DNA of 64,000 nt from the NCBI GenBank assembly GCA_965262635.1, contig OZ253547.1:3445514-3509513 (forward strand). The letters are read 5' to 3'. The notes under the pieces were generated by a model. It did not search any database. It was not told the DNA's origin and worked only from the letters and a program-made list of their open reading frames with translations. Each line of letters begins with the position of its first letter. The stretch's first letter is position 1. The position numbers were made by a program, and so were the translations under genes. Source of the stretch: Candidatus Versatilivorator sp. Its GTDB lineage: Bacteria; Acidobacteriota; Terriglobia; Versatilivoradales; Versatilivoraceae. Positions 36,819 through 55,647 of the stretch are shown in pieces.

Positions 36819-37964
36819 ATGAGACCTCCAGAAGGATTGTTGACCGGCCTCCCTCCCGGCTCCAAGATTCTGTTCGTCCGGCTTCGGTCTCTGGGCGATA
36901 CGATTCTGTCAACCCCTCTCTATGCCGCGCTCAAGGACTGGAGGCCGGACCTGCAGCTCTCGGCGCTGGTGGAAGAACCCTATGATGAAGTGCTGCGCCG
37001 TAATCCCAACCTGCAATCGGTGTTCCCTCTGCCGGTCCAGGGGGCCAAACGACGGTCCACCAGCATCGCTCGTTGGCAGACACTCCGGCAAATCCGGCGA
37101 GAGCGCTTCGACTGCTGCATCAACCTGCACGGAGGCACCACCAGCGCCTGGCTCACCGCGATGAGCGGGGCTCGCTATCGTATCGGCCTGCGTGGCTATC
37201 GCAATTCCTTTTGCTACAACGTTCGGACAAAGCGGCCGTCACCGCCCCCCGAGATCCGTTGGCACTCGGCCAGATTCCAATTGGAGTGGCTCTATCATCT
37301 GGGCCTGGAAAAAAGGCCCGCTCCTCCGGCGCGCCTCTTCCCCGACCCTGCGCTCCGGTCCGCCCTGGAGGTTCGCCTGCGGGATGCCGGACTCCCCCCC
37401 TCCCGGCCCCTTTGCGTGATTCAGCCCAGCTCTCGCTTTTATACCAAGGAGTGGACCGATTCCGGATTTGCCGAGATCTCGGATACCCTGCAAAACGAGC
37501 ACGGCTATGCCACCTTGCTGGTCGGTACCGAGGAGGAGGAGCCCAAGATCAGGAGGGTGGCCGGCCTCTGCCGAACCCGGCCTGCTGCGATTTGGGGCCT
37601 TTCGATCTCCGAGCTGACCTGGGTGTTGGATCAGGCCAGTCTGTTCCTGGGAAATGACAGTGGCCCCACCCACCTGGCTGCGGCACTGGGAATTCCCGTG
37701 CTGGTGCTCTTTGGATCCTCCGATTCAAGCCTGTGGCGCCCTTGGCAAACCACCTATGAGATCGTGCAGAATCCCTTTGACTGTAATCCCTGCCCCGGCT
37801 ACCGCTGCCTTGTGTATGACCAACCCCGCTGTATCCTCAGCATTACCCCGCACCAGGTGAAGCAAGCCTTGCAGCGTTTGCTGAAACGGACCCAACGGCC
37901 CGGTGGAAATCGAGAGACTGGCGCACCGGGGTTGGAGTCTCCGGAGGAGTGCAGCCCCCGGTGA
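36819..37964 (+). CDS. glycosyltransferase family 9 (LPS heptosyltransferase-like)
   Basis: About 381 aa from MRPPEGLL; KILFVRLRSLGDTILSTPL N-terminal GT9 signature; C-terminal GNDSGPTHLAAALG. Confidence 0.8.
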   Translation: MRPPEGLLTGLPPGSKILFVRLRSLGDTILSTPLYAALKDWRPDLQLSALVEEPYDEVLRRNPNLQSVFPLPVQGAKRRSTSIARWQTLRQIRRERFDCCINLHGGTTSAWLTAMSGARYRIGLRGYRNSFCYNVRTKRPSPPPEIRWHSARFQLEWLYHLGLEKRPAPPARLFPDPALRSALEVRLRDAGLPPSRPLCVIQPSSRFYTKEWTDSGFAEISDTLQNEHGYATLLVGTEEEEPKIRRVAGLCRTRPAAIWGLSISELTWVLDQASLFLGNDSGPTHLAAALGIPVLVLFGSSDSSLWRPWQTTYEIVQNPFDCNPCPGYRCLVYDQPRCILSITPHQVKQALQRLLKRTQRPGGNRETGAPGLESPEECSPR

Positions 37965-38035
37965 CAAATGCGGGCTTCGGCAGGAAGGGATTGGAGAATC
38001 CACGGGGACCTGGAACGGACGGCGCCTCCAGCAGT

Positions 38036-39148
38036 CTACCGGGGCCGCAGGAACCGGGTTCTCACCGTTACCTGCTCGATGCGTTTCAGGTGGGGCCGGA
38101 AGCCGATACCCGCATCCGGCAGCACATGAATCCTTCCCTGCGGGTCCACTTCCACTTCCGGCTCAATCAAGTCCTTACGAAAATAGCGCTTGCTGGCGGA
38201 AACATCGCCCGGCAGCCTGAAATTCTCCAGGGTGGAGAGGGCGACGTTGTGGGCTCGGCCGATGCCCGATTCCAGCATTCCCCCGCACCAGACGGGGACC
38301 TTCCGATCCCGGCAGACGTCGTGAACCCGGAGGGCTTCGCTGTAGCCGCCGACTCTCCCCAATTTGATGTTGATGATCCGGCAGGCCCCCGCTTCGATGG
38401 CCTTGCGGGCGTCCTCACCATCCAGGATGGATTCATCCAGACAGATGGGTGTGCGCAGGGCCTTCTGGAGTTGGACGTGGTCCAGGATGTCGTTCCAGGC
38501 CAGCGGCTGCTCAATCATCAATAGATCGAAATCATCCAGCGCCTTCAGGTGCTCCAGGTCAGCCAGGCTGTAGGCGGAGTTGGCATCGCACATCAACAGT
38601 ATCTCGGGAAAGCGCCTTCGGACTTCCCTCACTACAGCGACATCCCACCCCGGCTTGATTTTGATCTTGATTCGCCGGTAGCCTGCCAGCAACTCCCTTT
38701 CGATCTTGTCCAGCAAAATGCCGGGGTTCTCTTGAATGCCGATAGAGACCCCGCAATCCAGGGTCTTGCGCCGGCCCCCCAGCAGCTCGTGGAGGGGCTT
38801 CCCCTTCAGGCGCGCATAGAGATCCCAGATGGCTGTCTCCACGGCGGCCTTGGCCATATTGTGACCGCGGATGGGTTTGAGCAAGGGAGCGACATCTCGC
38901 GGATGGGTGATCTCAGAGGCAAAGACCCTGGGGACGACGAAATCCTGGAGCACATGCCAGGCGGTAGCAGTGGATTCGTGATTGTAGAACGGACCCTCGG
39001 GAGCGGTGGATTCGCCATAGCCAACCAATCCCTCGCCAAAGACTCGAACCAGAATCACCCGCCGCAGGGTCGTCCGTCCGAAGCTGGTCTCGAAAAAAGA
39101 GATCAGCGGCATCTGTACTTCACGGAGCTCAATCTGCTCGATCTTCAC
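38036..39148 (-). CDS. enolase-superfamily enzyme, o-succinylbenzoate synthase / N-acylamino-acid racemase / L-Ala-D/L-Glu epimerase-like
   Basis: 370 aa; KIKIKPGWD, MCDANSAY, IEQPL and CLDES metal-ligand blocks of the MR/MLE subgroup. Confidence 0.8.
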   Translation of the reverse strand: MKIEQIELREVQMPLISFFETSFGRTTLRRVILVRVFGEGLVGYGESTAPEGPFYNHESTATAWHVLQDFVVPRVFASEITHPRDVAPLLKPIRGHNMAKAAVETAIWDLYARLKGKPLHELLGGRRKTLDCGVSIGIQENPGILLDKIERELLAGYRRIKIKIKPGWDVAVVREVRRRFPEILLMCDANSAYSLADLEHLKALDDFDLLMIEQPLAWNDILDHVQLQKALRTPICLDESILDGEDARKAIEAGACRIINIKLGRVGGYSEALRVHDVCRDRKVPVWCGGMLESGIGRAHNVALSTLENFRLPGDVSASKRYFRKDLIEPEVEVDPQGRIHVLPDAGIGFRPHLKRIEQVTVRTRFLRPR

Positions 39149-40281
39149 AGGTTCAATGCCAGGTGGGTAAGTAAAGCGGCTCGTGGAACCAGACTCTCCA
39201 CCAGCACATGTTCGTGCAAGGCGTGGGGGCCATCGCCTTCAGGGCCCAGGCCATCCAAAGTAGGAATCCCCAGGGCCGCGGTGAAGCAGCCGTCGCTGGC
39301 TCCACCGGTAGAGCCCTCTTGCAGGTCGATGCCCAGCTCGGCAGCCAGCCCGCGCGCCTGCCGGAACAGTTGAATCACCTGCCCATTGCGTTCCAGGGGC
39401 GGCCGCTTGATGCTTCCCTGGACGGTAAGCCGACTGCCCTTGACCTGGGGCTTGAGCCGGTGGATCTGGTGCATAATCCGCTCTCCCTCGGCTTTGGTGA
39501 CCACTCGCACGTCCACTTCCAGCTCGGCCCGGTCGGCAATTACGTTGGAGCGGGAACCACCGCGGATCACCCCTGGATTCACCGTGGTTCCCAAATCCAG
39601 GTTGTTCAACTTGTAGAGCTCCAGGACCTGGCAGGCCAATTCCCGAATGGCGCTCACCCCTTTTTCATAGTCCACGCCGGCATGGGCAGCCACACCGCTG
39701 GCTGAAATCAAAAAGGTCCCCACCCCTTTGCGGGCGGTCTTGAGCGCGCCCCCGGGCAGGCAGGGCTCCAGTACCAGAACGGCCCGGCAATCCCCGGCTT
39801 CCTTTTCGATCAAGGCCCGTGCCGTCGGAGTGCCCACTTCCTCGTCGGAGTCGAGCAGCAGGGTCAGCGGCCGTTTCAAAGCCGCCCGGCCGCTCGACAG
39901 AAAGTGGGCCAGAGCCAGCATCAGGGTGGTGCCGCCGCGCATGTCAAAGGAGGCCGGACCAAAGATCTTCCCCTCTTCCAGCCTGGCCGGGCGCCTCCCG
40001 GCCTCGCCCATACCCCAGACCGTATCCAGATGGCCCAGCAGGAGCAGGGGTTTCCCTTGGGCTTCGGGACCCGAAAACCTGGCCAGCAGGTGGTCTCCCC
40101 CCTCCGGGTTGGAGACCAATTCCACCGCGGCGCCGTAGCTGCTGAACCGGTCGCCCAGGCGGCGGGCCAACCGGTCCAGCGCCGGCTTGTTGTCCGAAGG
40201 CGAATCCGTGTTGATCAAGTCCATCAGCCACTGGACCATCTGGGGTTCCAGATCGCGAAAATAGGAGAGGAGTGTCGACAT
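39145..40281 (-). CDS. M20-family peptidase/amidohydrolase (carboxypeptidase G2-like)
   Basis: About 379 aa from MSTLLSYF; LLLLGHLDTVW motif; start overlaps the upstream enolase-family gene by 4 nt. Confidence 0.8.
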   Translation of the reverse strand: MSTLLSYFRDLEPQMVQWLMDLINTDSPSDNKPALDRLARRLGDRFSSYGAAVELVSNPEGGDHLLARFSGPEAQGKPLLLLGHLDTVWGMGEAGRRPARLEEGKIFGPASFDMRGGTTLMLALAHFLSSGRAALKRPLTLLLDSDEEVGTPTARALIEKEAGDCRAVLVLEPCLPGGALKTARKGVGTFLISASGVAAHAGVDYEKGVSAIRELACQVLELYKLNNLDLGTTVNPGVIRGGSRSNVIADRAELEVDVRVVTKAEGERIMHQIHRLKPQVKGSRLTVQGSIKRPPLERNGQVIQLFRQARGLAAELGIDLQEGSTGGASDGCFTAALGIPTLDGLGPEGDGPHALHEHVLVESLVPRAALLTHLALNL

Positions 40282-40754
40282 GGAAAGAATGCCAGCCCCG
40301 GCGGGTCCCGACCGGCTCCCTGGCTCGCCAGATCGCGCCGGCCCCGTTTGGTGTCCGGGAGACCTCAAAAGAGGTGGGGCAAACGATTGAAAATTAAACC
40401 AACTTTCATCGTGTATCCGCCGCCCCTTGAGAGCATGCCGGCTGGGACCCGGCGGAGCGAGAACGCCACCCCAAAATACCACAGTTGCCTGGCGGTGGAT
40501 GGCTTTTTTGGCTCCCACCGGCGGTACCGCAACCCAATGCGGCGCAATCCCCGGGAAGATGTCCTACGGCTACTCCACCGGTCGGTTGTATTGGACTTTA
40601 AGATAAATTTACCCGAGCGCCGCTGTGGTTCTTGCTAAGATACAACCGACTCTCAGACTTGGCGCAGATCAAGGTGGGGCCCAAGGAGCCTGGACTTCGA
40701 AACGGCGATTCCGATGGGCCGTTGCCAAGCCGCTCTCAAGAAAGGCAGACCGAC

Positions 40755-42146
40755 ATGCAATCCTCACGAAGATCGTTTCTGAAAGCCTCCGGGGCCTGCA
40801 CCATGGGCTTCCTGGGGCTTCGCTCTCTAACCGACAACGGATTTTCAACGCCCGGTCCCAGACCGAATGCTCCGGCAGGCTATGGGGAGCTACAGCCGGA
40901 CCCGGAGGGGGTGATCGAACTCCCCGCGGGTTTCACCTATCGGATCCTTTCCAGGGTGGGCCAGATGATGGACGACGGGTACAAGGTCCCCGGTCTGCAT
41001 GACGGCATGGCTGCCTTTCCAGGTCCGTCAGGAACCACGATTCTGGTCCGAAACCATGAACTGAGCCTGGATCATCATTCCATCGGGGCCTTCGGGCCCC
41101 TCAACGAACTGATCAGGGAAAAAGACCGGGCAAAACTGTATGACGCCGGTCGCAGGAGGCCCTGCCTGGGGGGAACTTCCACCCTGGTCTACAACACTCG
41201 TGAGATGCGCCTGGAAAAGCACTTCCTGAGCCTGGGAGGGACGGTTCGCAACTGCGCGGGCGGGCCTACTCCCTGGGGAAGCTGGATCACCTGTGAGGAG
41301 ACGGTGCAGAAGGAGGAGGGACTCTACAGCCGGGATCATGGCTACAACTTCGAAGTGCCCGCTAGCAGCGAAGTCCGGCTGACTTCTGCGGTTCCCTTAA
41401 AAGCCATGGGGCGTTTCGTGCATGAAGCTGTCGCCGTCGATCCCAATTCCGGGATCGTCTATGAAACGGAGGACCGAGGTGATGGGCTACTCTACCGCTT
41501 TATCCCCTATAAGCCCGGAAATATGGCGGCAGGCGGGCGCCTGCAGGTTTTGAGGGTAAAGGATCGGCCCGGTCTGGACACGCGAAACTGGAACGCACGC
41601 CAAGTGCTGCCAGGTCACGCTTTCGAGATCGAATGGGTTGAGATGGACGATGTCGAGTCCCCCAATGATGATCTACGCTATCGAGGATTCGAAGATGGGG
41701 GCGCGGCCCGCTTTGCCCGGGGAGAGGGCATGTGGTGGGACAAGGGATGGATCTATTTTGTCTGCACCAACGGGGGCCTGAACAAAAAGGGGCAGGTGTG
41801 GCGCTACGCCCCCAGCTCCGAGGAGGGGAAACCCGGCGAGAACAGCAGGCCGGGCAAACTGGAACTGTTCATTGAGCCCAACGACGGCAACCTGGTCGAG
41901 AACGCCGACAACCTGACGGTGGCGCCTTGGGGGGACCTGGTCCTTTGTGAGGATGGACCGGAGGAGCAATTCGTGGTCGGGGTCACGCCGCGGGGCAATC
42001 TCTACAAGCTCGGCCGGAACGTGTTCAACAACTCCGAGTTTGCCGGTTCGACCTTTTCTCCCGACGGCAGCACCCTTTTCGTCAACATCCAGAATCCAGG
42101 CATCACGCTGGCCATTACCGGTCCCTGGCTGGAGCAAAAGAGCTAG
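40755..42146 (+). CDS. PhoX-family (DUF839) Tat-secreted phosphatase-like protein
   Basis: Tat signal MQSSRRSFLKASGACTMGFLGL; VRNHEL, NCAGGPTPWGSWITCEE and FSPDGSTLFVNIQ blocks. Confidence 0.75.
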   Translation: MQSSRRSFLKASGACTMGFLGLRSLTDNGFSTPGPRPNAPAGYGELQPDPEGVIELPAGFTYRILSRVGQMMDDGYKVPGLHDGMAAFPGPSGTTILVRNHELSLDHHSIGAFGPLNELIREKDRAKLYDAGRRRPCLGGTSTLVYNTREMRLEKHFLSLGGTVRNCAGGPTPWGSWITCEETVQKEEGLYSRDHGYNFEVPASSEVRLTSAVPLKAMGRFVHEAVAVDPNSGIVYETEDRGDGLLYRFIPYKPGNMAAGGRLQVLRVKDRPGLDTRNWNARQVLPGHAFEIEWVEMDDVESPNDDLRYRGFEDGGAARFARGEGMWWDKGWIYFVCTNGGLNKKGQVWRYAPSSEEGKPGENSRPGKLELFIEPNDGNLVENADNLTVAPWGDLVLCEDGPEEQFVVGVTPRGNLYKLGRNVFNNSEFAGSTFSPDGSTLFVNIQNPGITLAITGPWLEQKS

Positions 42147-42992
42147 CCCGCATTTCTCACCAAGTCGCAGCAACCATTGGGAAAGTATCTTTATCTTCAG
42201 GGTCCTGCTCGGCCCCATGCTCAAGACGACTGAGTACATACGGGGATGTGGATCCGGCACACGCGGCCGATGCCGGTGAGGCCGAGCCGGTTCTCTTCGA
42301 CGGCTACGCCCTGCGCGATGAGCCCATGCACGGCCCGGCGTCCCGTCCAGCCGAAGCACTCCAGCGCCTTCTCGCACCCCTTCAGATGGGCGATCATCGC
42401 TGCTGCGTCTCCCTGTGGGCCTGTCCGAGGGCCAGGATCCTGGAGGCGAACCGGATAGCCGGTTCAGGAACCGTCACGGTGTCATACAAACTACTATTGC
42501 GGAGCCCGCTTTTGGCGGTGTCAACAACGGGCGAGGAAGCAATGTCCCAGGGACTCCAGCTAAGTGCAAGAGTGTGACCAAGCTTCGCCGGTTAACGCTC
42601 AAGCCCTCCGGGAAGGCCCACAGCCCTTAATCGCGGCTGGTCGAATTGGGGTCGCTACGGGGCAGTTCACGCACCGCAGCATTTCGCCGAGTATCTTCGT
42701 AGACCTGGAACGGAACGGCGCCAGTGACCAAGCGAGGGTCGAGCACGTGTCCACTGCGACCCGCCTAAAAGGGGTGATCCATTCGTTGGACGCGGAGTAC
42801 GCTAGCCATGAACGCCCGCTCGCTCGCCGACGATCAACGGCTGGCTCGACATGCCCCGTGTCGAGTAGAATGGAGTGCCTCATGGGGTCAAGAAACCTGA
42901 CTGTCTGGCCACAGGACTCTACTTTCGGGCGACCAAGCGCAGAGAGACTCTAACGCGTTGGAGGACCGACTGACCAGGATTCGGATGTCTCC

Positions 42993-43199
42993 ATGATTGT
43001 CGATCCCGGCAAGATCCCGAACGTGCGGGCGAAATCCCCGCAGCACGTTCTACGGCTGGTACCGACGATACAAGAACAGGGATGTGACGGGACTGGCCGA
43101 CTGGCATCCGGCGCCGGCGTACCCTGGAACCGGATTCCCGACACGGTTCGTCAGCGCGTCGTCGACCCAGCGGATGAGGTGGGAACGAGAGCGCCATGA
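42993..43199 (+). pseudogene. fragment of an IS481/IS3-type transposase N-terminus (frameshifted)
   Basis: Two overlapping frames read ...RSTFYGWYRRYKNRDVTGLAD... and ...NRIPDTVRQRVVD..., resembling the HTH/OrfA region of IS481-like transposases. No intact ORF. Confidence 0.45.
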
Positions 43200-46100
43200 C
43201 CGTTCACTCTAAGGGCCGCGAGCTCTTCATCGTCGACAACAGTGTCTCCGGCTGGACCGGGCTCCGGTACTTGGAGGAGTGGTCCAGCATCGCGAAGGCG
43301 TTCGACATCGCGACCGGATACTTCGAGATCGGCGCTCTGCTCACCCTAGAAGGCAAGTGGCAGGAGCTCGACAAGATCCGGATCCTGATGGGGGCGGAGA
43401 CTACCCATCGGACTCGGAAGGCCATTCTCGAAGCGGTCCGGGCGCAAGCGCTCGACAGGCTCGATGAAAGCATGGAGGAGGACAAAGAGCCGAACCCCTT
43501 CCTGCACGGAGTCCATGCGATCCTCGAAGCGCTCCGCTCCGGGCAGATCGAATGCCGTGTCTACGACAAGGACAAATTCCACGCCAAGGCCTACATCACC
43601 CACGCAAGGCTCGAGGTCGTGGGCGCCCAGGGGCTGGTGGGCTCCAGCAACTTCACGCGCCCGGGTCTCACGAAGAACATCGAACTGAACGTCCAGATCC
43701 AGAGTGCGCGCGAGGTCGCGCAGCTCCAGGAGTGGTTCGAGACGCATTGGAACGAAGCGAGGGAGGTCACCGAGGCCGTCATTGAGACGATCTCGCGCCA
43801 TACGCACCTGTATTCGCCGTTCGACGTCTACGCGAAGGCCCTGCAGCAGTTCTTCCGGGGGCACGATCTGAGCGCGACTGAGTGGGACGAGACACGGTCG
43901 CGCATGTTCCCGCACCTCGATCGCTATCAGAAGGAGGCGTACTGGGCGCTCTTGAAGATCGCCCGGCAGCACGGCGGTGCGTTCCTCTGTGATGGCGTGG
44001 GTCTTGGGAAGACCTTCGTCGGTCTGATGCTGATCGAGCGGCTCATCCTTCACGAGGGCAAGCGTGTCGCGCTGTTCGCACCGAAGGCGACCAAGGAGGG
44101 CGTATGGGAGCCTCACCTGCGTCGGTGGCTTCCGCACATCGGCGGCGTCGGCGGTGGCGCGGACTTCAGCAACCTGGCCGTCTTCAGCCACACTGACCTG
44201 GGACGCAAGGGCGACTACCCGGAGCGTTTCCAGCGCATCGCGGAACTGGCCGACATCGTCGTCATCGACGAAGCGCACCACTTCCGCAATCCGGGTCGCC
44301 GGGGTGACCCGGACAGGGGAATCGAACCGTCGCGCTACTACCGCCTGTTCGAGTTGCTCGACAACGCGGAACGCCCCAAGACAGTGATCATGCTGACCGC
44401 CACCCCCATCAACAACCGCCTGAGCGACTTCCGTCACATGACCGAGCTCTTCACCCGTTGCGACGAGGCCTACTTCGCGCGCACGATCGGCGTGAACAAC
44501 CTGCGGGCGCACTTCAACCAGATGGAAAAGACGCTTCGCAGCCGTGTGGGGCAGGACGAGGCGGATGCCGCGGAGCACATGACCGAAGCCCAGCAGATCC
44601 TCTTCACCGACGCATTCTTCCGCCAGCTCGTCGTCCAGCGGAGCCGCGATTACGCCCGCGAGAGCCAGATTCGGGAGTACGGCAAAGCAGCCGCCTTTCC
44701 CGAGCGGAGGGACCCTCAGGTAGCGGCGTACTCGATCCGCAAGACCTACGGGGGGATGCTCAAGCTGATCGAGAAGGCCTTCGCGAAGCAGAGCCCCCTC
44801 TTCACGCTCGCGATGTACTACCCCCTGCATTGGTACAGGGGGCCGGACAAGGACATCGACCCGTTCGAGGAGAACCGCCAGAGACAGGTGGTCGGCCTCA
44901 TCCGGACCAACTTCCTCAAGCGCTTCGAGAGCTCCGTCGCCGCCTTCGAACTCTCCTGCGACCGCCTCCTCCAGAAACTGCTCGCCTTCCTTGAGGTTCA
45001 CAGCGAGAGCGACGCCGAGAAGAAGCGCCTCGAGCGCTGGAAGGCGCAGAACGCCGACGTCCTGGGCTACGCGGTCCAGCGCCAGCGCGAGCTCTGGGGC
45101 GAAGAAGGCAAGGAAGCGGACGACGAAGACATCGTCCCCCAGGAAATGCTCGACGCGGTCGAGCGCCTCGAGCGGGCCGAGTACGACGTAGAGGAGATGA
45201 TAGCCGAGACCTTCCTCGACCTCGACCAGATCGTGCAGTTCCTGGACGAGGCCCGGAAGTTCGAGCCGAAGCACGACGATAAGCTCAAGAAGCTCATCCG
45301 CCTACTCAATTCAAAGGCGCTGGCCGACCAGAAGATCCTGATCTTCACAGAGTTCGCCGACACGGCCCGCTACCTCAAGCGTCACCTGGACGAGGCCGGT
45401 ATCGAGGGTGTCGAGCAGGTGGACAGTGCCACGAAGAAGAACCGTTCAGACGTCATCCAGCGCTTCGCGCCCTACTACAACGGCCTCTCGTCCCCGGAAC
45501 TCGCCGAGCAGGGCCGCGAGGAGATCCGCGTCCTGATCTCCACCGATGTCCTCTCCGAGGGTCTCAACCTTCAGGACGCCTCGCGGATGACCAACTATGA
45601 CATCCACTGGAACCCGGTCCGCCTCATGCAGCGCATCGGCCGGGTGGACCGGCGCATGAATCCCGCAATCGAGAAGCGGCTCGTCGCCGACCATCCCGAG
45701 GCGGCCGCCTCGCGCGACACGGTCTGGTTCTGGAACTTTCTCCCGCCCGAGGAGCTGAACGAGATCCTCTCGCTCTACAGGAAGGTCACGCAGAAGGCGC
45801 TTCTGATCTCCAAGACCCTCGGGATCGAGGGCAAGAAGCTCCTCACCCCGGAGGACGATTACGAGGCGCTGAAGGAGTTCCACCACGCCTACGAGGGCAC
45901 GCGCACGGCCATGGAGGACATGCACCTCGAGTACCAGGCGCTGCTCCAAGCCGACCCGGAGCTGGAGGCGCGCCTCGCTCGCTTCCCCGGTGCGATCTTC
46001 AGCGGCCGCAAGCGCCCGGCAAGGGGCGTACGCGGTGTCTTCTTCTGCTACGCGCTCCCCGCCCTCGACAAGGAGAAGAACGAGTTCACCGAGGAGGCCG

Positions 46101-46345
46101 GCACCACCCGCTGGTACCTCTACGACCTCGACCGCGAGACCATCATCGAGGAGCCGGGCGAGATCGTCGCGAGCGTCCGCTCGAAGCCCGAGACGCCCCG
46201 GCACTGCACCACGGAGGAGAAGACGCTCCTCGACATCCGCAAGCGGATCGACAAGCACATCAAGAACAGTTACCTGAAGCGCGTGGACGCACCCGTCGGC
46301 GTCAAGCCGCGGCTGCACAGCTGGATGGAACTGAACGAGGGCTGA
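43196..46345 (+). CDS. PLD-family nuclease domain fused to SNF2-family helicase/translocase
   Basis: 1049 aa. N-terminus has [10 protein letters not shown]...GSSNFT (HxK...GSxN PLD motif). SNF2 motifs: GLGKTF (Walker A), [11 protein letters not shown] (DEAH box), [17 protein letters not shown]...QRIGRVDR (helicase C). Confidence 0.85.
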
Positions 46346-46349
46346 ACCG

Positions 46350-49300
46350 ATGCCGACCGACCACCGCGAACGCCTCGCCCGCATCCGCCGCTTCGACCAA
46401 CTCGTGGCATACCTGCGCGACGAGCTGGGCTGGCCGATCGACTCGGACGACTTTGAGGAGTTGACCTTCGAGTACACCCCGGAGGAGCTCGGGATCGACG
46501 CGAAGAACGCGGCCAAGATCCAGGAGATCAAGCGCCTGCGCCCGCTCGTGCCGGGCCAGCCCTGGGGCATCTTCTTCGTCAAGTTCGAGCCGAAACGGCT
46601 GCCCGTGGTGGCGCTGCGCCGCATCCTCAGCCAGGTGGCGCTCAAAAAGCGCGCCACGGCCAACAAGTCCGAGCGCCAGGCTTGGGCCGCCGACGACCTG
46701 CTCTTCGTCTCCAACTACGGTGAGGGCGAGGAGCGACGCATCGCCTTCGCGCACTTCTCGAAGCCCCGGGACAGCCACGACCTGCCCACCCTCAAGGTAC
46801 TCGGCTGGGACAACCTCGACACGCCGCTCCACCTCGACGCCGTCGCCCGCGAGCTGAGCGCGCACCTCGCCTGGCCCGACGACGAGGACGACCCCGACGC
46901 CTGGCGCGAGCGCTGGCGTGCTGCCTTTACACTGCGCCACCGCGAGGTCATCACGACCTCGAAGGAGCTCTCCGAGCGCCTGGCCGAGCTGGCCCGCTCG
47001 ATCCGCGACCGTATCCAGACGGCGCTCGCCATCGAGACCCAGGCCGGCCCGCTCACCCATCTCATGAAGGCGTTCCAGACCGCACTCGTCCACGACCTGG
47101 ACGAGGCCGGCTTCGCCGACATGTATGCCCAGACCATCGCCTACGGCCTGCTCTCGGCCCGCATCACCGACCCCACGCGGCGAACGGCCGACGACCTCGT
47201 CGCCCACGTGCGGACGAACCCATTCCTAAAGGAGCTGTTGGAGACCTTCCGCCACGTGGGTGGGCGCCGCGGCAAGGCCGGCGGTCCAGGCATCGACTTC
47301 GACGAGCTGGGCGTCTCCGAGGTGGTGGAGATGCTCGACCAGGCCAACATGGAGGCGGTGGTCCACGACTTCGGCGACCGGAACCCCCAGGAAGACCCGG
47401 TCATTCACTTCTACGAGCACTTCCTTGCCGCCTACGACAAGAAGCAGAAGGTGAGCCGGGGCGTCTTTTACACCCCGCGCCCGGTGGTCTCCTACATCGT
47501 GCGCTCGGTGGACCAGCTCTTGCGTAGCGAGTTCGGCCTCACCGACGGCCTCGCTGACAACACCACCTGGGGCGAGATGGCGAAGCGCCACAAGGAACTG
47601 AAGATCCCGGAAGGCACCTCGCCGGCGCAGGCCTTCGTCCAGATCCTCGACCCGGCCACCGGCACGGGCACCTTCCTCGTCGAGGTGATCGACCTCATCC
47701 ACAAGACGATGGTCGAGGAGTGGAAAGCCCAGGGCCACGGCGACAAAAAGATCGATGCGCTCTGGAACGACTACGTCCCCAAGCACCTCCTGCCGCGCCT
47801 GCACGGCTACGAGTTGCTAATGGCGCCTTACGCCATCGCGCACCTCAAGATCGGCCTCAAGCTCTTCGAGACCGGCTACCGGTTCGAGAGCGACGAGCGA
47901 GCGCAGGTGTACCTGACGAATGCGCTCGAGCCGCCGGTCGACGGGCAGCTCACCCTCGACTTCATGCCTGCGCTGGCGCATGAGGCTGAAGCGGTCAACA
48001 AGATCAAACGGAAGCAGCGGTTCACGGTGGTGATTGGGAATCCGCCCTACTCAGGCCTTTCCTCGAACATGGGTCCCTGGATCGACGGTCTTCTCAAGGG
48101 CCGCCTGCCAGATGGAAAGGCAACCTCCAGCTACTACCACGTAAACGGCAAGCCTCTCGGTGAGCGCAAGGTGTGGCTTCAGGACGACTACGTGAAGTTC
48201 ATTCGCCTCTCGCAGTGGCTCCTCGACGGCACGGGTGCGGGCGTTCACGGCTACATCACCAACCACGGCTACCTCGACAACCCCACGTTTCGAGGAATGC
48301 GCTGGTCGCTCATGGAGTCCTTCCGCCGGATCCGTGTGCTCGACCTTCACGGGAACCTCAAGAAGAAGGAGGCTCCGCCGGGGGGCAGCCGCGATGTCAA
48401 CGTGTTCGACATCCAGCAGGGCGTGGCTATCGGGCTTTTCACAAAGTCTGCCGCCGCCAGATCTGTCCACCACGCAGATCTGTGGGGCGAACGGGAAAGC
48501 AAGTACAGATGGCTACTGGAGCATGGGTCCTTAACCACCGAATGGGCGCAACTGGAACCAGCTCCACCGTTCTATCTGTTCGAGCCCTTCGACGACGCAG
48601 GAACGGACGCCTACTACGGCTGGCCTGCAATCAGCGAGGTGATGGCCGTCAACGTGACCGGCATCGTCACGGCGCGCGATGATTTCGTCATCGATTTCGA
48701 CCGGGAGGCCCTCCGAGGCCGGATCGCCGACCTGCGCTCGAAGTCACTGTCCGATGATGCAATCCGGAAGAAATACTTCGTCGGGAAGGGTTCGAAGAAG
48801 TATCCGCCCGGGGACTCGCGCGGATGGAAGCTGCCTGCGGCCCGGCGGAAGATCCGTGAAGATGATCAGTGGGATGAGCGGTACGCGCCTGTGCTGTATC
48901 GCCCGTTAGACGTCCGGGAGATGTACTACGTGCCGTGGATGGTGGACTGGCCTCGGACCGAAGCCATGCCACACATGCTCGCGGGGGAGAATGTCGCCCT
49001 GATGGCATGTAGGCAAGCAATCGGTAACGGCTGGAAACACTTACTGGCCACGCGATTGATTACCGATGACTCGATGGTTTCCAATCGAACACGCGAGCGA
49101 GGTTATCTTTTCCCCGTTTACCTCTATCCGGGGGTTGGAAGTGCAGATACATCACTGTTCAGCCGCTGGGCCGAGGGCAAGGACGGCCGCACGCCAAATC
49201 TGGACTCGGGGTTCGTCGAGCAGATTGCAGCCGCCACCGAACTGCGATTCGTCAGCGACGGCCGCGGCGATCTCTGGAAGACCTTCGGCCCCGAGGACGT

Positions 49301-50369
49301 CTTCGCCTACATCTACATGGTGTTCCACAGCCCCGGCTACCGCGGCCGCTACGAGGCCCATCTCAAGCTTGACTTCCCCCGCGTGCCGGTGCCCGGAAGT
49401 GTCGACCTCGTCCGAAAGCTGGCGGAGGCCGGCCATGACCTGCTGGCCCTCCACCTGCTCGAATCCCCGAAGCTCGGTAAGCCCATCACCGCCTACACCG
49501 GCCCCAGGAACCCAGAAGTCGGCCGTGTCGGCTGGTCGGACGGCACGGTCTGGCTCGACGCCGGCAAGACCAACGCCCGCGCGGGCCACCGTGCGACGAA
49601 ACGCGGCACCATCGGGTTCCAAGGCATACCCGAGGAAGTCTGGGACTTCCAAATCGGCGGCTACCAAGTTTGCCACAAGTGGCTCAAGGATCGGAAGGGA
49701 CGCACGCTCTCCGACGAGGACATCGCCCACTACCAGAAAATCGTCGTCGCCCTGAACGAGACCATCCGCGTCATGGCCGAAATTGACGAGGTCATCGAAG
49801 CCCACGGCGGCTGGCCCGCCGCATTCCATACGGCGTCGGAGGCGGATGCCGTATCGGAGTGGACGGCGAAGGTGGTGGCGTTCCGGCCACGCACGGTCGA
49901 GCCCGCGCCCGAGGACCGCTACGTCACCTGCGTGCCGCTCGTCGCGCTAAGAGCAGCAGCCGGCGACTTTGGCGATCCGCAGCATATCGAAGACGACGAT
50001 TTCGAGTGGGTCGCTGTCCAGTCCCGCCATCGTCTGCGCAAGGGCATGTTCGTCGCCCAGGTCGTCGGCAAGTCCATGGAACCCGCAGTCGCCGACGGCG
50101 CTTGGTGCCTATTTCGCGCTCCGGTCGAGGGCACACGCCAGAGCAAGACCGTTCTCGTCCAGCTCCGCGACGCCACCGACCCGGAGACCGGTCAGCGCTA
50201 CACGGTCAAGCGCTACAAGAGCCTAAAGGCGACAGAGGGCGACTCCTGGCGCCACGAGAAGATCACCCTTGAGCCCGTCAACCCGGACTTCGAGCCGATA
50301 GTGCTCACCGGTGTGGACGAAGGCGAGCTGCAGGTAATCGCGGAACTAGTCGACGTGTTGGGGGGCTGA
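46350..50369 (+). CDS. gamma-class N6-adenine DNA methyltransferase (BREX PglX / type IIG-like giant MTase) with C-terminal LexA-type S24 peptidase domain
   Basis: 1339 aa; FYTPRPVV (motif X), [11 protein letters not shown] (motif I), VIGNPPYSG (motif IV). The last ~149 aa (from nt 49920) align with the LexA C-terminal domain: [21 protein letters not shown] (Ser) and TVKRYK (Lys). Confidence 0.85.
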
Positions 50370-50372
50370 GGT

Positions 50373-53300
50373 ATGGTTCCGGAACAGCTCGAACCGCACC
50401 TGGAGCTGCTCCGCGAGGAGTACGTCCTCGTTCAGGCCTGGAAGAAGACCGCGTCCTACATCCGCTACCACAACTGGTTCTCCGACACGCTCGCCCTCGA
50501 CCGCGCGGCCGTGAACCTGCCGGCGTTTATCGGCGAAATCCGTGAACGTCTGCGGTCTTCGGAGAGATGGCAGAACGATCCTCTGCGAATCGTGCCAGCA
50601 CCCAAGAGCCAGCGCTGGAGAGCGCGTGAAGGCGTGTGGGAGCCCGTCGAGAAAAGGGCCGCCTCAGTACGACTTCGACCGCTCGCACACGTCAGTCTGG
50701 CCGACCAGGTGGTAGCGACGGCGCTGATGCTTTGTCTCGCCGACCGTGTCGAAACGCTGCAGGGGGATCCGCGGCGGCCGCTACGTGATCAAGAGTCGCG
50801 ACGGCAGGTGGTCTCCTACGGGAACCGACTGTTCTGCGACGCGATGGGAGGCGAACTGCGCCATCGGTGGGGATCCGCCAAGCTCTACCGTGCCTACTAC
50901 CAGGACTACCGCGCGTTCCTCTCCCGTCCGGAAGTTGCGGCCGAGTCGATTCTCGCAGCCCACGGAAAGCGGGTGTACGTCCTCCATGCGGACCTTCGAC
51001 AATTCTATGACCGCGTGCGCCCAGATCTGCTTGCCGAAGCGATCGACCGGGTCCGCCGCGACGGCGATGATCCGGCGTTCTTCTCTTTGGTGGCGTCCGT
51101 GCTCGATTGGGGTTGGCATCAGCGTGACGAAAGAGACGTCCGAATCTACGCAGAGCAGGCGGAGCTGGAGGACTTCACGCGGGTGGCACTGCCACAGGGA
51201 CTCGTCGCCTCCGGCTTCTTCGCGAACGTCGTGCTTCTTTCGTTCGACGAGGCGCTGCGCGTGGCGATCGGGACCGAGATCGCCCCCGGGATCCTGCTGG
51301 CGGATTCGTGCCGATACGTCGACGACTTACGGATCCTGGTTGCGGTTGCCCCGAACACGGATGGCTCCTCGAATGACCTTGAGAAGACCGTCGCAAGATG
51401 GCTAAATCAGGTACTGGAAGAGAATGCGACCGGCCTAGCCCTGGCCCCCGAGAAGACCCAGGTCGCAGCGCTCGGAGGCGACGAACGACCGCTGGTGCGG
51501 CAGAGCGCGAAGATGAACCGCATCCAGTCGGCGGTGTCGGGGGGATTCGACGGGCTCGGGGGCGAGGAGATCCTCGATGCCATCCAGGGCCTGATGCGCG
51601 CGCAGGAAGCCCTGAGCGTGGGCGACGACAGCGGCTGGCGATATTCCCCGGTCCCGGATGTGCGGGACGAGACGGTCGCCAGATTCGGCGCTGCCCGATA
51701 TCGAACCACGTTCCGTTCCATCAGGCCACTGCTCCAAGACAACGACACACCGGACGAGTCTGAGGTTGGAAGAGGCGATACCCCGCCCGGCGGGCGACTG
51801 CGCGTGGCGCGTACGCGGCGCGAGCTGGACGAGGATGCGAGGGCGTTTGCGCTCGGACTGCTTCAACGGTGGATCGACGACCCCTCGAACGTTCGATTGC
51901 TCCGGATCGGCCTCGATCTCTGGCCGGATGTCGAGTTGTTGCGGGAAGTTCTTTCACTGCTCCGCCCATTCACGGAAACGGGAGGTCGGCGAAAAGCGCC
52001 GAGGCGAGTCGCCTGGTACTGCCTCGCTGAAGTCTTGCGCGCGGGAGCCACGGAGACGGGCCTCGTGGCAGACACCGAATCGCTTCCATCAGAGATCGAC
52101 CTTGAATCCTACCGAGAGGAGCTTGGCAGGGAGGCCGCTCGCCTAGTGGGTTTGCCCGGGCCGACGATTCCCTGGTATCTCCGACAGCAGGCGCTGTTGT
52201 TTCTAGCAGCATGCGATCCCGCCGGAGCGCCCGTTACCCGCACGGGAACCGGATCGGAGACCCGGCACTACCGGGAGCTGATTCGATTTCTGCGCGGTGA
52301 AGGAGAACGCCTCAGGAGTTCGGATTTCGCGACCCTCGCGGTTCTCGCCAGACGTGCGTTCGTAGATCGAGTGCGGGCCGTTGAGTTGGCGCGGCCCGGC
52401 CTCAATCCGTCGCGGAAGCGGCAGCTTGCTCAGAGGGACCCGTCGTTTCTTCTTGAGCTCATCGACACCGAGACGGACGCTCTCCTCGTCGACGACCTTC
52501 CGGCGCGCATCCGTGAGGACTTCTGCCGGGCTTCGGAGAGTCCTGACGGAGACCACGACACGCTGGCCATGGCGGTCCTGAACACGCACCCGAGCGGTTC
52601 TCTTCGCAACGAGCTCTCTCTTCTGCGCTTCGCGATGGCTTTTCTCAGCCAGTGGGAGCAGCAGGAGTTTCCGCCCGAGGTGATCACGCCAGGGCACGTC
52701 ACGCTGATGCTCGGCGAGGACCAGGGGATCGCTGACGTAGAAAGCCTACGGATCCTGGGGAGTCGGGCCGACGCATCGGGCTCCCTGTACGAGGTGGCCG
52801 CGTGGTGCCAAGCCGGTGATCGGTGGCGCTTCCAGCTCGGTTTCCTGTTGCGGTTCATCTTGTCGGGGCAGCCGGACTTCACGCGCCCTGTCTGCAGGAC
52901 GGGCTGGAGAGAGACTGAGTCTTGCTATCGGCCTGCCGAGAGCCACTGGTACCAGCGGTTGTACGGCCTTTACAACGGGCAGCCGGCCTTCGGAGACGAC
53001 TGGCTTCCGATCACGGATTGGGTAGAAGGATTCCTCCTGGCCCTCCTGCGCTGGCCAGGATGCCTTGCTCCGGAAGGGTTCAGTTGGGTCGAGCAGGGCA
53101 TCGAAGAGGCGAGGACGCAGATTGGCCAGAGGATCGCTGATCTCGAGCAGCGCCGCGGTAGCGCTACCCGTGCACTGATCCTGCCGCTGCTGGCCAAACG
53201 ACCGACTGCGACGAACACGAAGAGGCCGTTACGTGCCTGCGTGGTACAGACAGCGATCCCGGCGGCCGACGACTTCCAGCACACAGATTTGGCACTCAAC

Positions 53301-53537
53301 GATTCCGCAATTCGGCGAAGACACCGCAATCACCTGTCGGCAGCGCTCGCGGCCGTGGAACGCATGTTGGCGTTGCGGGAGACGCACAAGGGGAGCGTAG
53401 GGCGGCTCGATTGGCTGATTCTGCCCGAGCTTGCCGTCCATCCGAATGACGTTCGTACTCATCTGGTCCCTTTCGCACGGGCTCACAGGGCAATGATTCT
53501 CACCGGGCTGACCTACGAAGAGATTCTAGTGTACTGA
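50373..53537 (+). CDS. reverse transcriptase domain protein, 5' part of an RT-nitrilase fusion (DRT1/UG1-like), truncated by IS630 insertion
   Basis: RT motifs: VLHADLRQFYDRVRPDLL (motif 2), ALPQGLVASGFFANVVLLSFD (motif 4), CRYVDDLRIL (YxDD) and LAPEKTQV (motif 6). C-terminal LRACVVQTAIP...WLILPELA begins a CN-hydrolase domain. The stop codon is supplied by the IS terminus. Confidence 0.85.
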   Translation: MVPEQLEPHLELLREEYVLVQAWKKTASYIRYHNWFSDTLALDRAAVNLPAFIGEIRERLRSSERWQNDPLRIVPAPKSQRWRAREGVWEPVEKRAASVRLRPLAHVSLADQVVATALMLCLADRVETLQGDPRRPLRDQESRRQVVSYGNRLFCDAMGGELRHRWGSAKLYRAYYQDYRAFLSRPEVAAESILAAHGKRVYVLHADLRQFYDRVRPDLLAEAIDRVRRDGDDPAFFSLVASVLDWGWHQRDERDVRIYAEQAELEDFTRVALPQGLVASGFFANVVLLSFDEALRVAIGTEIAPGILLADSCRYVDDLRILVAVAPNTDGSSNDLEKTVARWLNQVLEENATGLALAPEKTQVAALGGDERPLVRQSAKMNRIQSAVSGGFDGLGGEEILDAIQGLMRAQEALSVGDDSGWRYSPVPDVRDETVARFGAARYRTTFRSIRPLLQDNDTPDESEVGRGDTPPGGRLRVARTRRELDEDARAFALGLLQRWIDDPSNVRLLRIGLDLWPDVELLREVLSLLRPFTETGGRRKAPRRVAWYCLAEVLRAGATETGLVADTESLPSEIDLESYREELGREAARLVGLPGPTIPWYLRQQALLFLAACDPAGAPVTRTGTGSETRHYRELIRFLRGEGERLRSSDFATLAVLARRAFVDRVRAVELARPGLNPSRKRQLAQRDPSFLLELIDTETDALLVDDLPARIREDFCRASESPDGDHDTLAMAVLNTHPSGSLRNELSLLRFAMAFLSQWEQQEFPPEVITPGHVTLMLGEDQGIADVESLRILGSRADASGSLYEVAAWCQAGDRWRFQLGFLLRFILSGQPDFTRPVCRTGWRETESCYRPAESHWYQRLYGLYNGQPAFGDDWLPITDWVEGFLLALLRWPGCLAPEGFSWVEQGIEEARTQIGQRIADLEQRRGSATRALILPLLAKRPTATNTKRPLRACVVQTAIPAADDFQHTDLALNDSAIRRRHRNHLSAALAAVERMLALRETHKGSVGRLDWLILPELAVHPNDVRTHLVPFARAHRAMILTGLTYEEILVY

Positions 53538-54690
53538 CATCTAATTAATATTTAATAATGATGATTCGATGCTATAGTATGGGGCATGGCCCGTCCGATT
53601 ACAGTCCTCAAGCTCACAGCCGGTGAACGTCGAGAGTTACAGCGCCGGGTTAGTTCCAGCACGAGTTCGAAGCGCGATAGCTTGCGCGCCGAGATTGTCC
53701 TGCTCCGGAGCGAAGGGGTCAAGGTCGAGGAAGTGGCTGAACGATTGAACGTCAGCTTGCCGTGCGTCAGCAAGTGGTCGAGGCGCTTCCAGCACGCCGG
53801 CCTGGACGGCTTGAACGACAAAGCGGGACGGGGACGCAAACCGTGGGTGCCCATGGAGACAGTCGAACAAATCATCGTGAAAGTGACCCAGCCGCCACCG
53901 GGACGGACGCGATGGAGTTTGCGCAGCATGGCGAAGGAAGTCGGCGTCTCGCGCCACACGGTCCACACGATCTGGAAGCGTAACGACTTGAAGCCTCATC
54001 GCACGCGTACATTCAAGCTGTCGAAAGATCCGAAGTTCGAGCAGAAATTCTGGGATGTCATCGGTCTCTACCTCCATCCTCCCGAGAAAGCGCTCGTGCT
54101 CTGCTGTGACGAGAAAACCCAGTGTCAGGCTCTGGAACGCAGTCAGCCGGGATTGCCCTTAGGAATCGGCCACATTCGCACCCGAACTCATGACTACAAG
54201 CGACACGGCACCATCACCTTGTTTGCGGCTCTCAACTACCTGGACGGCAAGCTGATCTCCCGGACTGAACAGCGGCACACCCATGTGGAGTGGTTGCGTT
54301 TCCTCAAGCAGATCGAACGGGAAACACCCAAGTCGCTGGCCATTCACCTCATTGTCGACAACTACAGTACTCATAAGCATGAACGTGTCCGCCGTTGGGT
54401 CGACCGTCATCCACGCATCCACTACCACTTCACGCCGACCGGGAGCTCCTGGCTGAATCTTGTCGAACGCTTCTTCGCCGATCTCACCAGCGATGTGATT
54501 CGCGACGGCAGCTTTCGCAGCGTCCCCGAACTGGTTCGCGCCATCGAATCCTATCTGGCCGACCGCAACGCGGATCCTCAACGCTACACATGGCATACAA
54601 AAGGCGAAGCAATCCTCGCCAAGATTCAACGAGCCAAAGAGGCTCTGGCCAACGTTAATTAATTAAACCCATTTCAATGTCAGGACACTA
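53529..54690 (+). mobile_element. IS630-family insertion sequence (1162 bp) with imperfect terminal inverted repeats GTGTACTGACAT / ATGTCAGGACAC and TA target duplication (53527-28 / 54689-90)
   Basis: TIRs match 11/12 positions. Excising 53529-54690 restores one continuous reading frame across the nitrilase domain. Confidence 0.85.
53586..54662 (+). CDS. IS630-family (Tc1/mariner-like) DDE transposase
   Basis: 358 aa; N-terminal HTH, DDE triad region ...DNYSTHKHE... and IS630-typical C-terminus. Confidence 0.9.
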   Translation: MARPITVLKLTAGERRELQRRVSSSTSSKRDSLRAEIVLLRSEGVKVEEVAERLNVSLPCVSKWSRRFQHAGLDGLNDKAGRGRKPWVPMETVEQIIVKVTQPPPGRTRWSLRSMAKEVGVSRHTVHTIWKRNDLKPHRTRTFKLSKDPKFEQKFWDVIGLYLHPPEKALVLCCDEKTQCQALERSQPGLPLGIGHIRTRTHDYKRHGTITLFAALNYLDGKLISRTEQRHTHVEWLRFLKQIERETPKSLAIHLIVDNYSTHKHERVRRWVDRHPRIHYHFTPTGSSWLNLVERFFADLTSDVIRDGSFRSVPELVRAIESYLADRNADPQRYTWHTKGEAILAKIQRAKEALANVN

Positions 54691-55287
54691 GCGGGGCAAC
54701 CGCTCGTCAACTCAGCCCTGTGGGTCATTCCGGAGTGGTCGGACGCCTACGGGCTGCAGATCAAGACTCGCCGTCAGGGGAAGGCCCATCTCGCCCCGAA
54801 TGAGCAAGCGTTCAACGGTGGTGGGGCGCACGTTCTTCAGGGATTCCGGCCCTGCCAGTGGTTGATCGGCTATCCGTGGTCGAGTGCGGACGGTACCCAG
54901 CCCGTCTGGCTCACGGCAGCGGTGTGCTACGACGCGACGGACCTCGGCTTGGCTGCGGATCTCAGGGATGTGTCGGATGTCTTGGCGATCCCGGCGCTCA
55001 ACAAGGACGTGAAGACGTTCGACCAAATGGCGTTGGCGCTGCACTACCATATGTTCCAGCTCGTGGTCGTCGCCAATAACGGCCAGTACGGCGGGAGCAA
55101 CGCATACTGGCCCCGGAGCAATGCTCACATCAGGCAGGTCTTCCACACCCACGGGCAGCCGCAGGCTTCGATCGCGTTCCTCGAAATCGACGACATCGGC
55201 GCGTTCCTGAAGCGCCACGACGTGTCGGGAGCCAACGCCGACAACTGGAAGCATCCCCCCGCAGGTCTGAACATAGCATCGCCGTGA
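54691..55287 (+). pseudogene. 3' remnant of the RT-nitrilase gene: C-terminal half of the CN-hydrolase (nitrilase) domain
   Basis: In frame with 50373..53528 once the IS is removed. Contains catalytic-Lys block RRQGKAHLAP and catalytic-Cys block AAVCYDATD. Confidence 0.75.
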
Positions 55288-55647
55288 GGTTGGTAGTGAC
55301 AGGCTTCGCCGCCGGTGCCCGCCGCCTACCGGCCCACCACGTCACCATCCGCGTTCCGTGGCACCACAGGGGCTGGGCCGGAACGGTGTGTGCGCGGCCG
55401 CTGGACAACTCGAGCTGCCTCATCCTGCCCCGCATCGACGCGGGGGGATATGCCGCTTAATGGGGGCGGCTTCGTGCAGGGACTTGATGGAGTATCGCCG
55501 GTCTGGCTGGTAGGGTTTTGCAACACCCTTGAGGCTCACGGACTATGCCCGACATCCTGCGCCGGCGCAATGAACCATGCGGGTTAACTTATCGACACGA
55601 CTTGAAACACCCCCCTCCCCGCGCGCTGAGAGGGGGATAGCGGAAAA

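Follow-up and report, generated by a model that had tools for sequence, protein, structure and literature searches.

Introduction

Fusions of a PLD-family nuclease with an SNF2 helicase have precedents in other defence systems. A 2020 study described SWI2/SNF2 helicases joined to a PLDc or PD-(D/E)xK nuclease and encoded together with a COG1743 methyltransferase and DUF499 in one operon (PMC7641849), and effectors combining an HKD-endoDNase with Swi2/Snf2 have been tallied for Type-2 BR systems in 921 taxa (PMC12839542). The Type-2 BR system has been renamed MANTIS, and cryo-electron microscopy of its dimeric PLD-helicase, MtsD, revealed one PLD site built from two chains, in the manner of SauUSI (bioRxiv 10.64898/2026.09.23.753747). 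Here we analyze a 64,000-nucleotide stretch of the genome of Candidatus Versatilivorator sp. (Acidobacteriota; assembly GCA_965262635.1, contig OZ253547.1, positions 3,445,514 to 3,509,513), hereafter the window, whose own coordinates are used throughout. It encodes a PLD-SNF2 helicase-nuclease followed by a large adenine methyltransferase, and we consider it reasonably probable that the two proteins make up a two-subunit, ATP-dependent restriction-modification (R-M) enzyme, a split counterpart of the Type ISP and Type IIL-like enzymes with different restriction hardware.

We found no published description of this exact two-gene architecture in the searchable literature (most subscription journals and REBASE lie outside that scope), and the model libraries searched hold no name for the family. 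An initial annotation, made from the letters of the window, implied that the fusion was new. It is not, having appeared earlier in the studies cited above (PMC7641849, PMC12839542, MtsD of MANTIS) and in SauUSI. What the sequences describe is an abundant and highly mobile two-gene form with a Type ISP/IIL-like methyltransferase.

The helicase-nuclease

The gene for the helicase-nuclease, the putative restriction subunit, occupies positions 43196..46345 of the forward strand, on which the other parts of the island described below also lie. The initial annotation read it as a single open reading frame of 1049 residues with a PLD motif ahead of both SNF2 lobes, and the translation (from an ATG start) and the Pfam matches agree; full-length homologs are known. 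A scan for a promoter or terminator 5' of the gene found nothing.

The N-terminus forms a single-lobe PLD/HKD nuclease domain (residues ~10-190, 43223..43765). As the initial annotation expected, it fits PLD nuclease profiles: Pfam PLDc_2 covers residues 36-185 (E=3.5e-12, 46.7 bits against a cut-off of 27), and the RE_NgoFVII-type PLD nuclease model covers residues 109-187. The domain contains the HxK...GSxN motif of the PLD/HKD nuclease superfamily (residues 129-152, 43580-43651), comprising H129, K131 and the sequence GSSNFT with G149, S150 and N152, and it is modelled by AlphaFold2 (AF2) with a predicted local distance difference test score (pLDDT) of ~85-90. Each chain carries one HKD motif.

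The sequences GVGLGKT, DEAH, TATPINN and QRIGRVDR follow downstream, in that order. The first Snf2 ATPase lobe (residues ~241-420, 43916..44455) matches ResIII/SNF2-rel_dom in Pfam at residues 241-415 and includes Walker A (GLGKT, K272), the DEAH box (D358, E359, H361) and TATP. Snf2-type helical insertions (residues ~421-690, 44456..45265) separate it from the second RecA-like lobe (residues ~691-830, 45266..45685), which is matched by Helicase_C (residues 696-819, E=2.6e-18) and has invariant Q812, R813, G815 and R816. With RecA lobes of Snf2 type, helicase motifs I-VI and the Snf2-specific insertions, the protein is a SWI2/SNF2 ATPase.

Helicase_C ends at residue ~820-830, and the C-terminal alpha/beta extension (residues 831-1049, 45686..46342) is thus ~220 residues long rather than the ~300 given initially. 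This family-specific extension is modelled confidently from residue ~905 (pLDDT 79-94), after a low-confidence linker (~850-904), and matches no Pfam or PADLOC model. The same scans revealed no recognizable DNA-reading or modified-base reader domain anywhere in the protein. The best PADLOC match is the "HKD+Snf2" model (E=1.3e-58, residues 38-882), beside which PADLOC also holds a "PLD_Helicase" model. Residues 35-891 are also matched, at 1e-95, by phrog_26785, a family of phage proteins without an assigned function.

The methyltransferase

The second gene begins 4 nucleotides past the helicase stop codon (46350..50369) and encodes a gamma-class N6-adenine methyltransferase of 1339 residues, the putative modification and specificity subunit. 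It had been annotated initially as a large adenine methyltransferase, an assignment upheld by N6_Mtase/Eco57I/MmeI_Mtase signatures and intact DPATGTGTF and NPPY motifs. A family-specific N-terminal region (residues 1-276, 46350..47177) is followed by a helical pre-methyltransferase region and the catalytic core (residues 277-760, 47178..48629), both recognized through PDB sequence matches. Next comes a target-recognition domain (TRD) of the Type ISP kind, hypervariable across loci (residues 763-1143, 48636..49778; Pfam Type_ISP_C, E=1.2e-77), and the protein ends in an S24 tail. The order of a gamma N6-adenine methyltransferase and then a Type ISP TRD is that of Type ISP R-M enzymes. Solved relatives found by PDB sequence search are DrdV (7lo5, 1.1e-30), LlaBIII (4xqk, 5e-26) and LlaGI (5ffj, 6e-24). 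DrdV is the closest of these, its alignment over residues 339-886 taking in the core and the N-terminal portion of the TRD.

Breadth and conservation of the family

From 5.8 billion proteins, a sequence search retrieved 5764 relatives of the helicase-nuclease. The top 120 clusters are 82-93% identical to it and nearly all ~1049 residues long. An exhaustive search of cluster representatives recovered 1574 clusters (50% identity) at E<=1e-30, and full-length relatives reach down to ~30% identity. By genome scan, we located 80 loci with a helicase-nuclease of 64-98% identity in more than 15 phyla, the phyla and classes including Gemmatimonadota, Acidobacteriota, Binatia, Chloroflexota, Spirochaetia, Rhodothermales, Verrucomicrobiota, Planctomycetota, Latescibacterota, Thermodesulfobacteriota, and Alpha- and Gammaproteobacteria.

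In an alignment of 43 sequences (28-93% identity), no substitution is seen at G149, S150, K272, D358, E359 and H361, and conservation is at least 90% at each of H129, K131 and N152. Conservation is uniform along the whole chain, the C-terminal domain included, and PLDc_2, SNF2 and Helicase_C are retained in 42-43 of the 43 family members, down to 28% identity. An origin of the fusion by frameshift or assembly merge of two genes is ruled out, because more than 120 protein clusters and the 80 loci share the uninterrupted ~1049-residue frame and because of these domain-complete members.

Linkage of the two genes

Occurrence of the fusion next to large adenine methyltransferases in other genomes, suggested initially as a check, proved to be the rule. 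The methyltransferase lies 3' of the helicase in essentially every sufficiently long contig among the 80 loci. Where both genes are present, the gap from stop to start is at most 13 nucleotides (mode 4) in 60 of 66 loci, and five of the remaining six carry insertions of 1.1-6.4 kb. No other gene is consistently linked to the pair across the loci surveyed.

The identity of the methyltransferase N-domain tracks that of the helicase (r=0.89). TRD identity between loci averages 51% (range 28-88%), against 64-98% for the helicase over the same comparison. At the DNA level, a block is 90-92% identical between genomes assigned to different phyla (43035-50369 compared with L001-L012, L053, L063, L068 and L076). 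Its left edge is sharp, 0-160 bp upstream of the helicase ATG, and it is interrupted only over the TRD, from ~48052/48440 to ~49100/49650. The right end falls at ~49.85 kb where the S24 tail is lacking, at 50.37 kb where it is present and at ~55444 where the DRT1 gene follows. No integrase or transposase is consistently linked to the block in the compared loci. Read from these alignments, the pattern is that of a mobile R-M system exchanging specificity domains, and the identity of the block points to very recent transfer between phyla. Within the Acidobacteriota, a contig of a metagenome-assembled genome (L059) is 97% identical over 36759-48700, from the upstream flank through the helicase and across most of the methyltransferase gene, and differs in the TRD segment (70% protein identity).

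The helicase is intact and catalytically complete beside a destroyed methyltransferase in several genomes. In L009 the methyltransferase core and TRD are deleted, in L018 an insertion sequence (IS) interrupts the N-domain, and in L007 a 1.2-kb insertion lies in the TRD; several further loci have a frameshifted methyltransferase. If the helicase were an autonomous restriction nuclease, loss of the methyltransferase would be lethal. The survival of intact helicases is what would be expected of a nuclease-motor that finds its targets through the methyltransferase-TRD subunit, and implies such a dependence, which is also the case in BREX, MANTIS and the enzymes of Types I, III and ISP. Together with the absence of a DNA-reading domain, these loci speak against the "self-contained" translocating nuclease of the initial annotation. 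Systematic truncation of the methyltransferases, which the 334-641-residue length of all top matches to the N-terminus had suggested, was rejected: the loci mostly have intact methyltransferases, many of the short entries have tails derived from frameshifts, and the effect is largely an artefact of ranking or assembly.

More distant helicase relatives (27-41% identity) share operons with large methyltransferases of the MmeI/Eco57I/TaqI_C type. These operons sometimes hold DUF3800 or other inserted genes, and some are on Deinococcus and Nostoc plasmids. Two distant PLD-SNF2 relatives (P0199 and P0147, at L081 and L087) belong to operons of three genes, whose other products are an Eco57I/MmeI-type methyltransferase and a DUF3800 protein; both orders of the genes occur.

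Proposed mechanism

The observations on which our model builds are the domain make-up of the two proteins, the conservation of both catalytic centres, operon coupling, the parallel conservation of helicase and N-domain, the hypervariable TRD, the failure to detect a nuclease in the methyltransferase and the fact that loss of the methyltransferase is tolerated. We predict that the 1339-residue subunit uses its C-terminal TRD, of the Type ISP type, to read an asymmetric site, and labels host DNA as self by methylating one adenine. It would have no nuclease of its own, with restriction supplied by the 1049-residue subunit, which would be recruited to the site-bound methyltransferase in a physical complex. 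Recruitment probably involves the ~220-residue C-terminal domain of the helicase and the N-terminal domain of the methyltransferase, of which residues 1-195 are the likely docking surface because the N-domain co-varies with the helicase. At unmodified sites, the methyltransferase would load or activate the PLD-Snf2 subunit, which may then translocate on double-stranded DNA by its Snf2-type motor.

Cleavage is expected to require two chains because each contributes a single HKD half-site. By likeness to Nuc, BfiI, SauUSI and MtsD, the helicase-nuclease presumably dimerizes through its PLD domain. One PLD active site might be assembled from two chains that already exist as a dimer, the arrangement in SauUSI and MtsD, or from chains brought together when two translocating complexes converge, as in Type ISP enzymes. 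The need for two chains could in turn provide a check on site orientation, or on the presence of two sites, that spares hemimethylated host DNA. The claim of the initial annotation that the fusion is the restriction arm of the adjacent methyltransferase fits the obligate adjacency, the parallel conservation, the hypervariable TRD and the methyltransferase in which no nuclease was detected; it stands here as a proposal.

Several points weigh against this model. The sequence HAKAYITH has histidine at the position of the classical aspartate of HxK(x)4D, and nuclease activity of MtsD in vitro has so far not been shown (bioRxiv 10.64898/2026.09.23.753747). The argument for contact between helicase and methyltransferase is one from co-conservation, and loci at 90% DNA identity are non-independent observations. 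Some of the methyltransferase frameshifts may be errors of long-read assembly. The model of the methyltransferase N-domain is poor (pLDDT 55), which leaves a small probability that this domain has a cryptic or very divergent nuclease fold. Finally, a PLD-SNF2 relative of 46% identity (P0124; L084 649-5997 and L085 357-5705) is followed, at a gap of 0 nucleotides, by a 741-residue protein with sigma-70 r2/r3/r4 domains in place of a methyltransferase. Judging from this pairing, the motor-nuclease can serve partners other than a methyltransferase.

Alternative explanations

The alternative that survives best, doubtful as we find it, is exclusion of the BREX or DISARM kind, in which the methyltransferase only marks self and the PLD-SNF2 protein senses or blocks foreign DNA without site-specific cleavage directed by the methyltransferase. 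It could act by replication stalling or remodelling, for example, and the PLD domain may nick DNA or serve only as a back-up. The in vitro result for MtsD is compatible with this explanation, as are partial matches of the helicase-nuclease to the DrmD, BrxHII, HmaA and DpdE models (PADLOC, NCBIfam) and the defence modules that adjoin the system (DRT1, PDC-S68 and a GHKL ATPase). However, DrmA/B, PglZ, BrxC and DUF499 are all absent from the island, the PLD catalytic residues are kept family-wide, and the TRD is of the Type ISP kind, by which LlaGI and LlaBIII direct their cleavage.

It is highly unlikely that the 1339-residue protein is instead a complete Type IIG/IIL enzyme with its own N-terminal nuclease, and the PLD-SNF2 protein a separate or accessory defence gene. 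PADLOC does label the protein (METHYLTRANSFERASE) as REase_MTase_IIG (PDLC03610, a Type IIG restriction enzyme-methyltransferase; E=2.4e-202), and its homology to DrdV (7lo5) is of the same import. However, the REBASE-derived IIG profiles align only from residue ~196, corresponding to profile position ~153, with no match to the nuclease segment of the profiles. The homologous region starts at residue 277 for LlaGI and LlaBIII and at residue 339 for DrdV, and residues 1-340 have no Pfam match. The N-domain alignment contains no invariant acidic/lysine triad ("E80" varies as E/A/P/Q). The AF2 model of this domain, built from a shallow alignment, gave no significant match in a fold search; LlaGI (5ffj, 0.54) and DrdV (0.47, E=0.11) were among the highest Foldseek probabilities for this low-confidence model, with DrdV a point in favour of a complete enzyme. 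The helicase gene is moreover fixed 4 nucleotides upstream and co-varies with exactly this N-domain. From the alignments, residues 1-195 read as a family-specific domain at the position of the MmeI/DrdV-type PD-ExK nuclease.

There is only a remote chance that the PLD-SNF2 protein acts against modified foreign DNA as a Type IV enzyme like SauUSI, beside a methyltransferase that is functionally unrelated or needs only to be compatible with it. SauUSI has the same order of PLD and superfamily 2 (SF2) ATPase and aligns over the whole chain, and the C-terminal domain, to which no role has been assigned, could be a reader; the reader scans and the dependence implied by methyltransferase loss bear on this idea as described above. 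The most remote explanation, a non-defence mobile module for epigenetic or transcriptional control in which a RapA-like Snf2 ATPase and a DNA methyltransferase regulate genes, draws on RapA being among the top sequence and fold matches of the helicase-nuclease and on the relative paired with a sigma-70-domain protein, and is opposed by the conserved nuclease active site, the hypervariable TRD, the recent inter-phylum transfer, the frequent decay and the defence-island neighbours, all of them features typical of R-M or defence genes.

The island and its optional neighbours

Within the window, the island (~43.0-55.45 kb) contains only the helicase, the methyltransferase, DRT1 and an IS630 element. 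It is flanked by housekeeping genes, upstream for PhoX, an M20 peptidase and an enolase-family protein, and downstream for a GH3/beta-lactamase protein and an amidohydrolase. A second transposase gene of the window (DDE_Tnp_1, 589 residues, 33895-35664) lies ~8 kb upstream of the island.

The C-terminus of the methyltransferase is a LexA/UmuD-like S24 module (residues ~1195-1339, 49932..50366; Pfam Peptidase_S24, E=5e-5). Its Ala1204-Gly1205 site (AAxGxF), Ser1242 (GxSM) and Lys1287 (TxKxY) are common to 25 tails of 39-98% identity, and the tail is predicted to be a conserved self-cleaving module of the LexA/lambda-CI type. It is optional, being present in 24 of ~62 evaluable loci (besides the window these include L002, L003, L006, L007, L011, L012, L023-L025, L041, L043, L056 and L073). 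The literature searched contains no description of an R-M methyltransferase fused to S24.

The DRT1/UG1 gene starts 3 nucleotides past the methyltransferase stop codon. Its 5' part (codons 1 to ~1052, 50373..53528) matches PADLOC Drt1a with E=1.4e-294, ending at profile position 999 of 1176, and includes YVDD. An IS630-family element then interrupts the gene (53529..54693; inverted repeats TAGTGTACTGACAT / ATGTCAGGACACTA), with a transposase at 53586..54662 (Pfam DDE_3 and a helix-turn-helix domain). The 3' part (codons ~1052-1253, 54685..55290), with the rest of the nitrilase domain, was found by tblastn with the full-length L003 protein and is 87% identical to residues 1052-1253 of that DRT1. 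DRT type 1 proteins combine a reverse transcriptase (YxDD) with a complete C-terminal nitrilase in ~1200-1300 residues. The window copy, split at codon ~1052, is by its sequence a pseudogene whose family assignment is unambiguous. Intact copies of ~1250 residues are present in L003, L007, L009, L011, L012, L016 and L041.

DRT1 lies 3-9 nucleotides past the methyltransferase in 8 of 24 loci with an S24 tail, versus 1 of 38 without (Fisher p=0.0014, a value that ignores shared ancestry); loci with DRT1 after the methyltransferase include L003, L007, L008, L009, L011, L012, L041 and L071. This suggests that S24 and DRT1 travel as a linked add-on block. A survey of UG/Abi reverse transcriptases (PMC9226505) makes no mention of an association between S24-methyltransferases and DRT1.

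The recurrent optional neighbours, DRT1, PDC-S68 and a GHKL ATPase, are all of defence type. PDC-S68 (a PADLOC candidate, 1507 bits) is a RecD-like superfamily 1 helicase of ~1280 residues, often 3' of DRT1 (L003, L009, L016, L041, L053 and L063). In L043, L046, L047, L056, L060 and L073, a GHKL ATPase of ~700 residues (HATPase_c_3) lies directly 3' of the methyltransferase, which is S24-tailed in all except L046. A ~420-residue protein without a family match follows the ATPase in four of these loci, and the two may be an uncharacterized defence pair. 

A more elaborate proposal, which we regard as quite unlikely, is that a Snf2 motor of the chromatin-remodeller type with half a PLD site, loaded by a nuclease-less Type ISP/IIL-like methyltransferase, constitutes a minimal and uncharacterized class of ATP-dependent R-M enzyme, and that, in the sub-lineage with an S24 tail, LexA-like, RecA*-responsive self-cleavage of the methyltransferase couples DNA damage or restriction to the translationally coupled DRT1 or GHKL ATPase downstream, giving a two-layer defence.

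Comparison with known systems

The nearest studied counterpart of the effector is that of MANTIS (also Gao_RL, or Type-2 BR). Both have an N-terminal single-HKD PLD domain fused to a Swi2/Snf2 ATPase, with extra C-terminal domains, and both are encoded beside an N6-adenine methyltransferase that sets specificity. For both, restriction of unmethylated DNA after methyltransferase-dependent recognition is proposed (PMC12839542; bioRxiv 10.64898/2026.09.23.753747; PMC7641849). MANTIS, however, needs four proteins (MtsA, an AAA+ DUF499 loader; MtsB, a small DUF3780 protein named DUF3870 in the MANTIS preprint; the methyltransferase; and MtsD), compared with two core genes here. Its methyltransferase is COG1743/BrxXI-like with a nested TRD, whereas ours is DrdV/LlaGI-like with a C-terminal Type_ISP_C TRD. 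Genes for DUF499 (MtsA) and DUF3780 (MtsB) were neither found in the island nor recurrent in the 80 loci. The likeness is in architecture only; the PLD anti-phage equivalog NF042964 scores 156.6 bits against a cut-off of 1100. Membership in MANTIS was rejected: the two have the effector architecture in common, but the partner genes are missing here.

Type ISP enzymes (LlaGI, LlaBIII) share the homologous methyltransferase core and Type_ISP_C TRD, and likewise combine nuclease, SF2 motor, methyltransferase and TRD. Hemimethylation of asymmetric sites and cleavage coupled to translocation are expected for both. In Type ISP enzymes, however, a single polypeptide carries all of these parts, its nuclease being an Mrr-family PD-(D/E)xK domain and its motor HsdR-like, whereas here the nuclease-motor is a separate polypeptide, with a PLD nuclease and a Snf2-type motor. 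Among Type IIL/IIG enzymes (MmeI, DrdV), DrdV is the closest solved methyltransferase relative, and REBASE-derived IIG profiles match strongly. These enzymes have an N-terminal PD-ExK nuclease, undetectable in residues 1-195 here, and act without ATP or a motor.

SauUSI (Type IV, PDB 7CLG) places PLD and then an SF2 ATPase in one chain, its whole chain aligns structurally with the helicase-nuclease, and its single-HKD dimer is a precedent for forming one PLD site. Unlike our protein, it is autonomous, attacks 5mC/5hmC DNA and has an SRA-like C-terminal reader; here, no DUF3427/SRA-like reader was detected, the motor is of Snf2 type and a methyltransferase partner is obligate. Hma is a different system, in which HmaA joins Snf2 to a C-terminal PD-(D/E)xK nuclease and the partners are an m5C methyltransferase and an ATPase.

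The initial annotation took DISARM as its frame of reference, and Class 1 DISARM does bring a PLD protein (DrmC), an SNF2 helicase (DrmD) and an adenine methyltransferase (DrmMI) together in one defence locus. In DISARM, however, PLD and SNF2 are separate genes, and the defining DrmA and DrmB (DUF1998) are absent from the island. The DrmD (NF038317) and DrmC (NF038319) models score 132.7 bits against a cut-off of 610 and 20.4 against 133, respectively. Membership in DISARM was thus rejected, and the frame does not suit this locus.

With 1574 clusters and ~90% DNA identity between phyla, the family counts as an important barrier-and-cargo element of the microbiomes of soil and sediment, and its swappable TRDs could yield new adenine-methylation specificities. 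If the proposed mechanism is correct, the pair would offer a tractable system for the question raised by MANTIS, of how a methyltransferase loads a Snf2 motor and how translocation gates a half-site PLD nuclease. It would also be the simplest known methylation-based defence with a PLD-Snf2 effector, achieved with two proteins as compared with four in MANTIS and five or more in DISARM and BREX.

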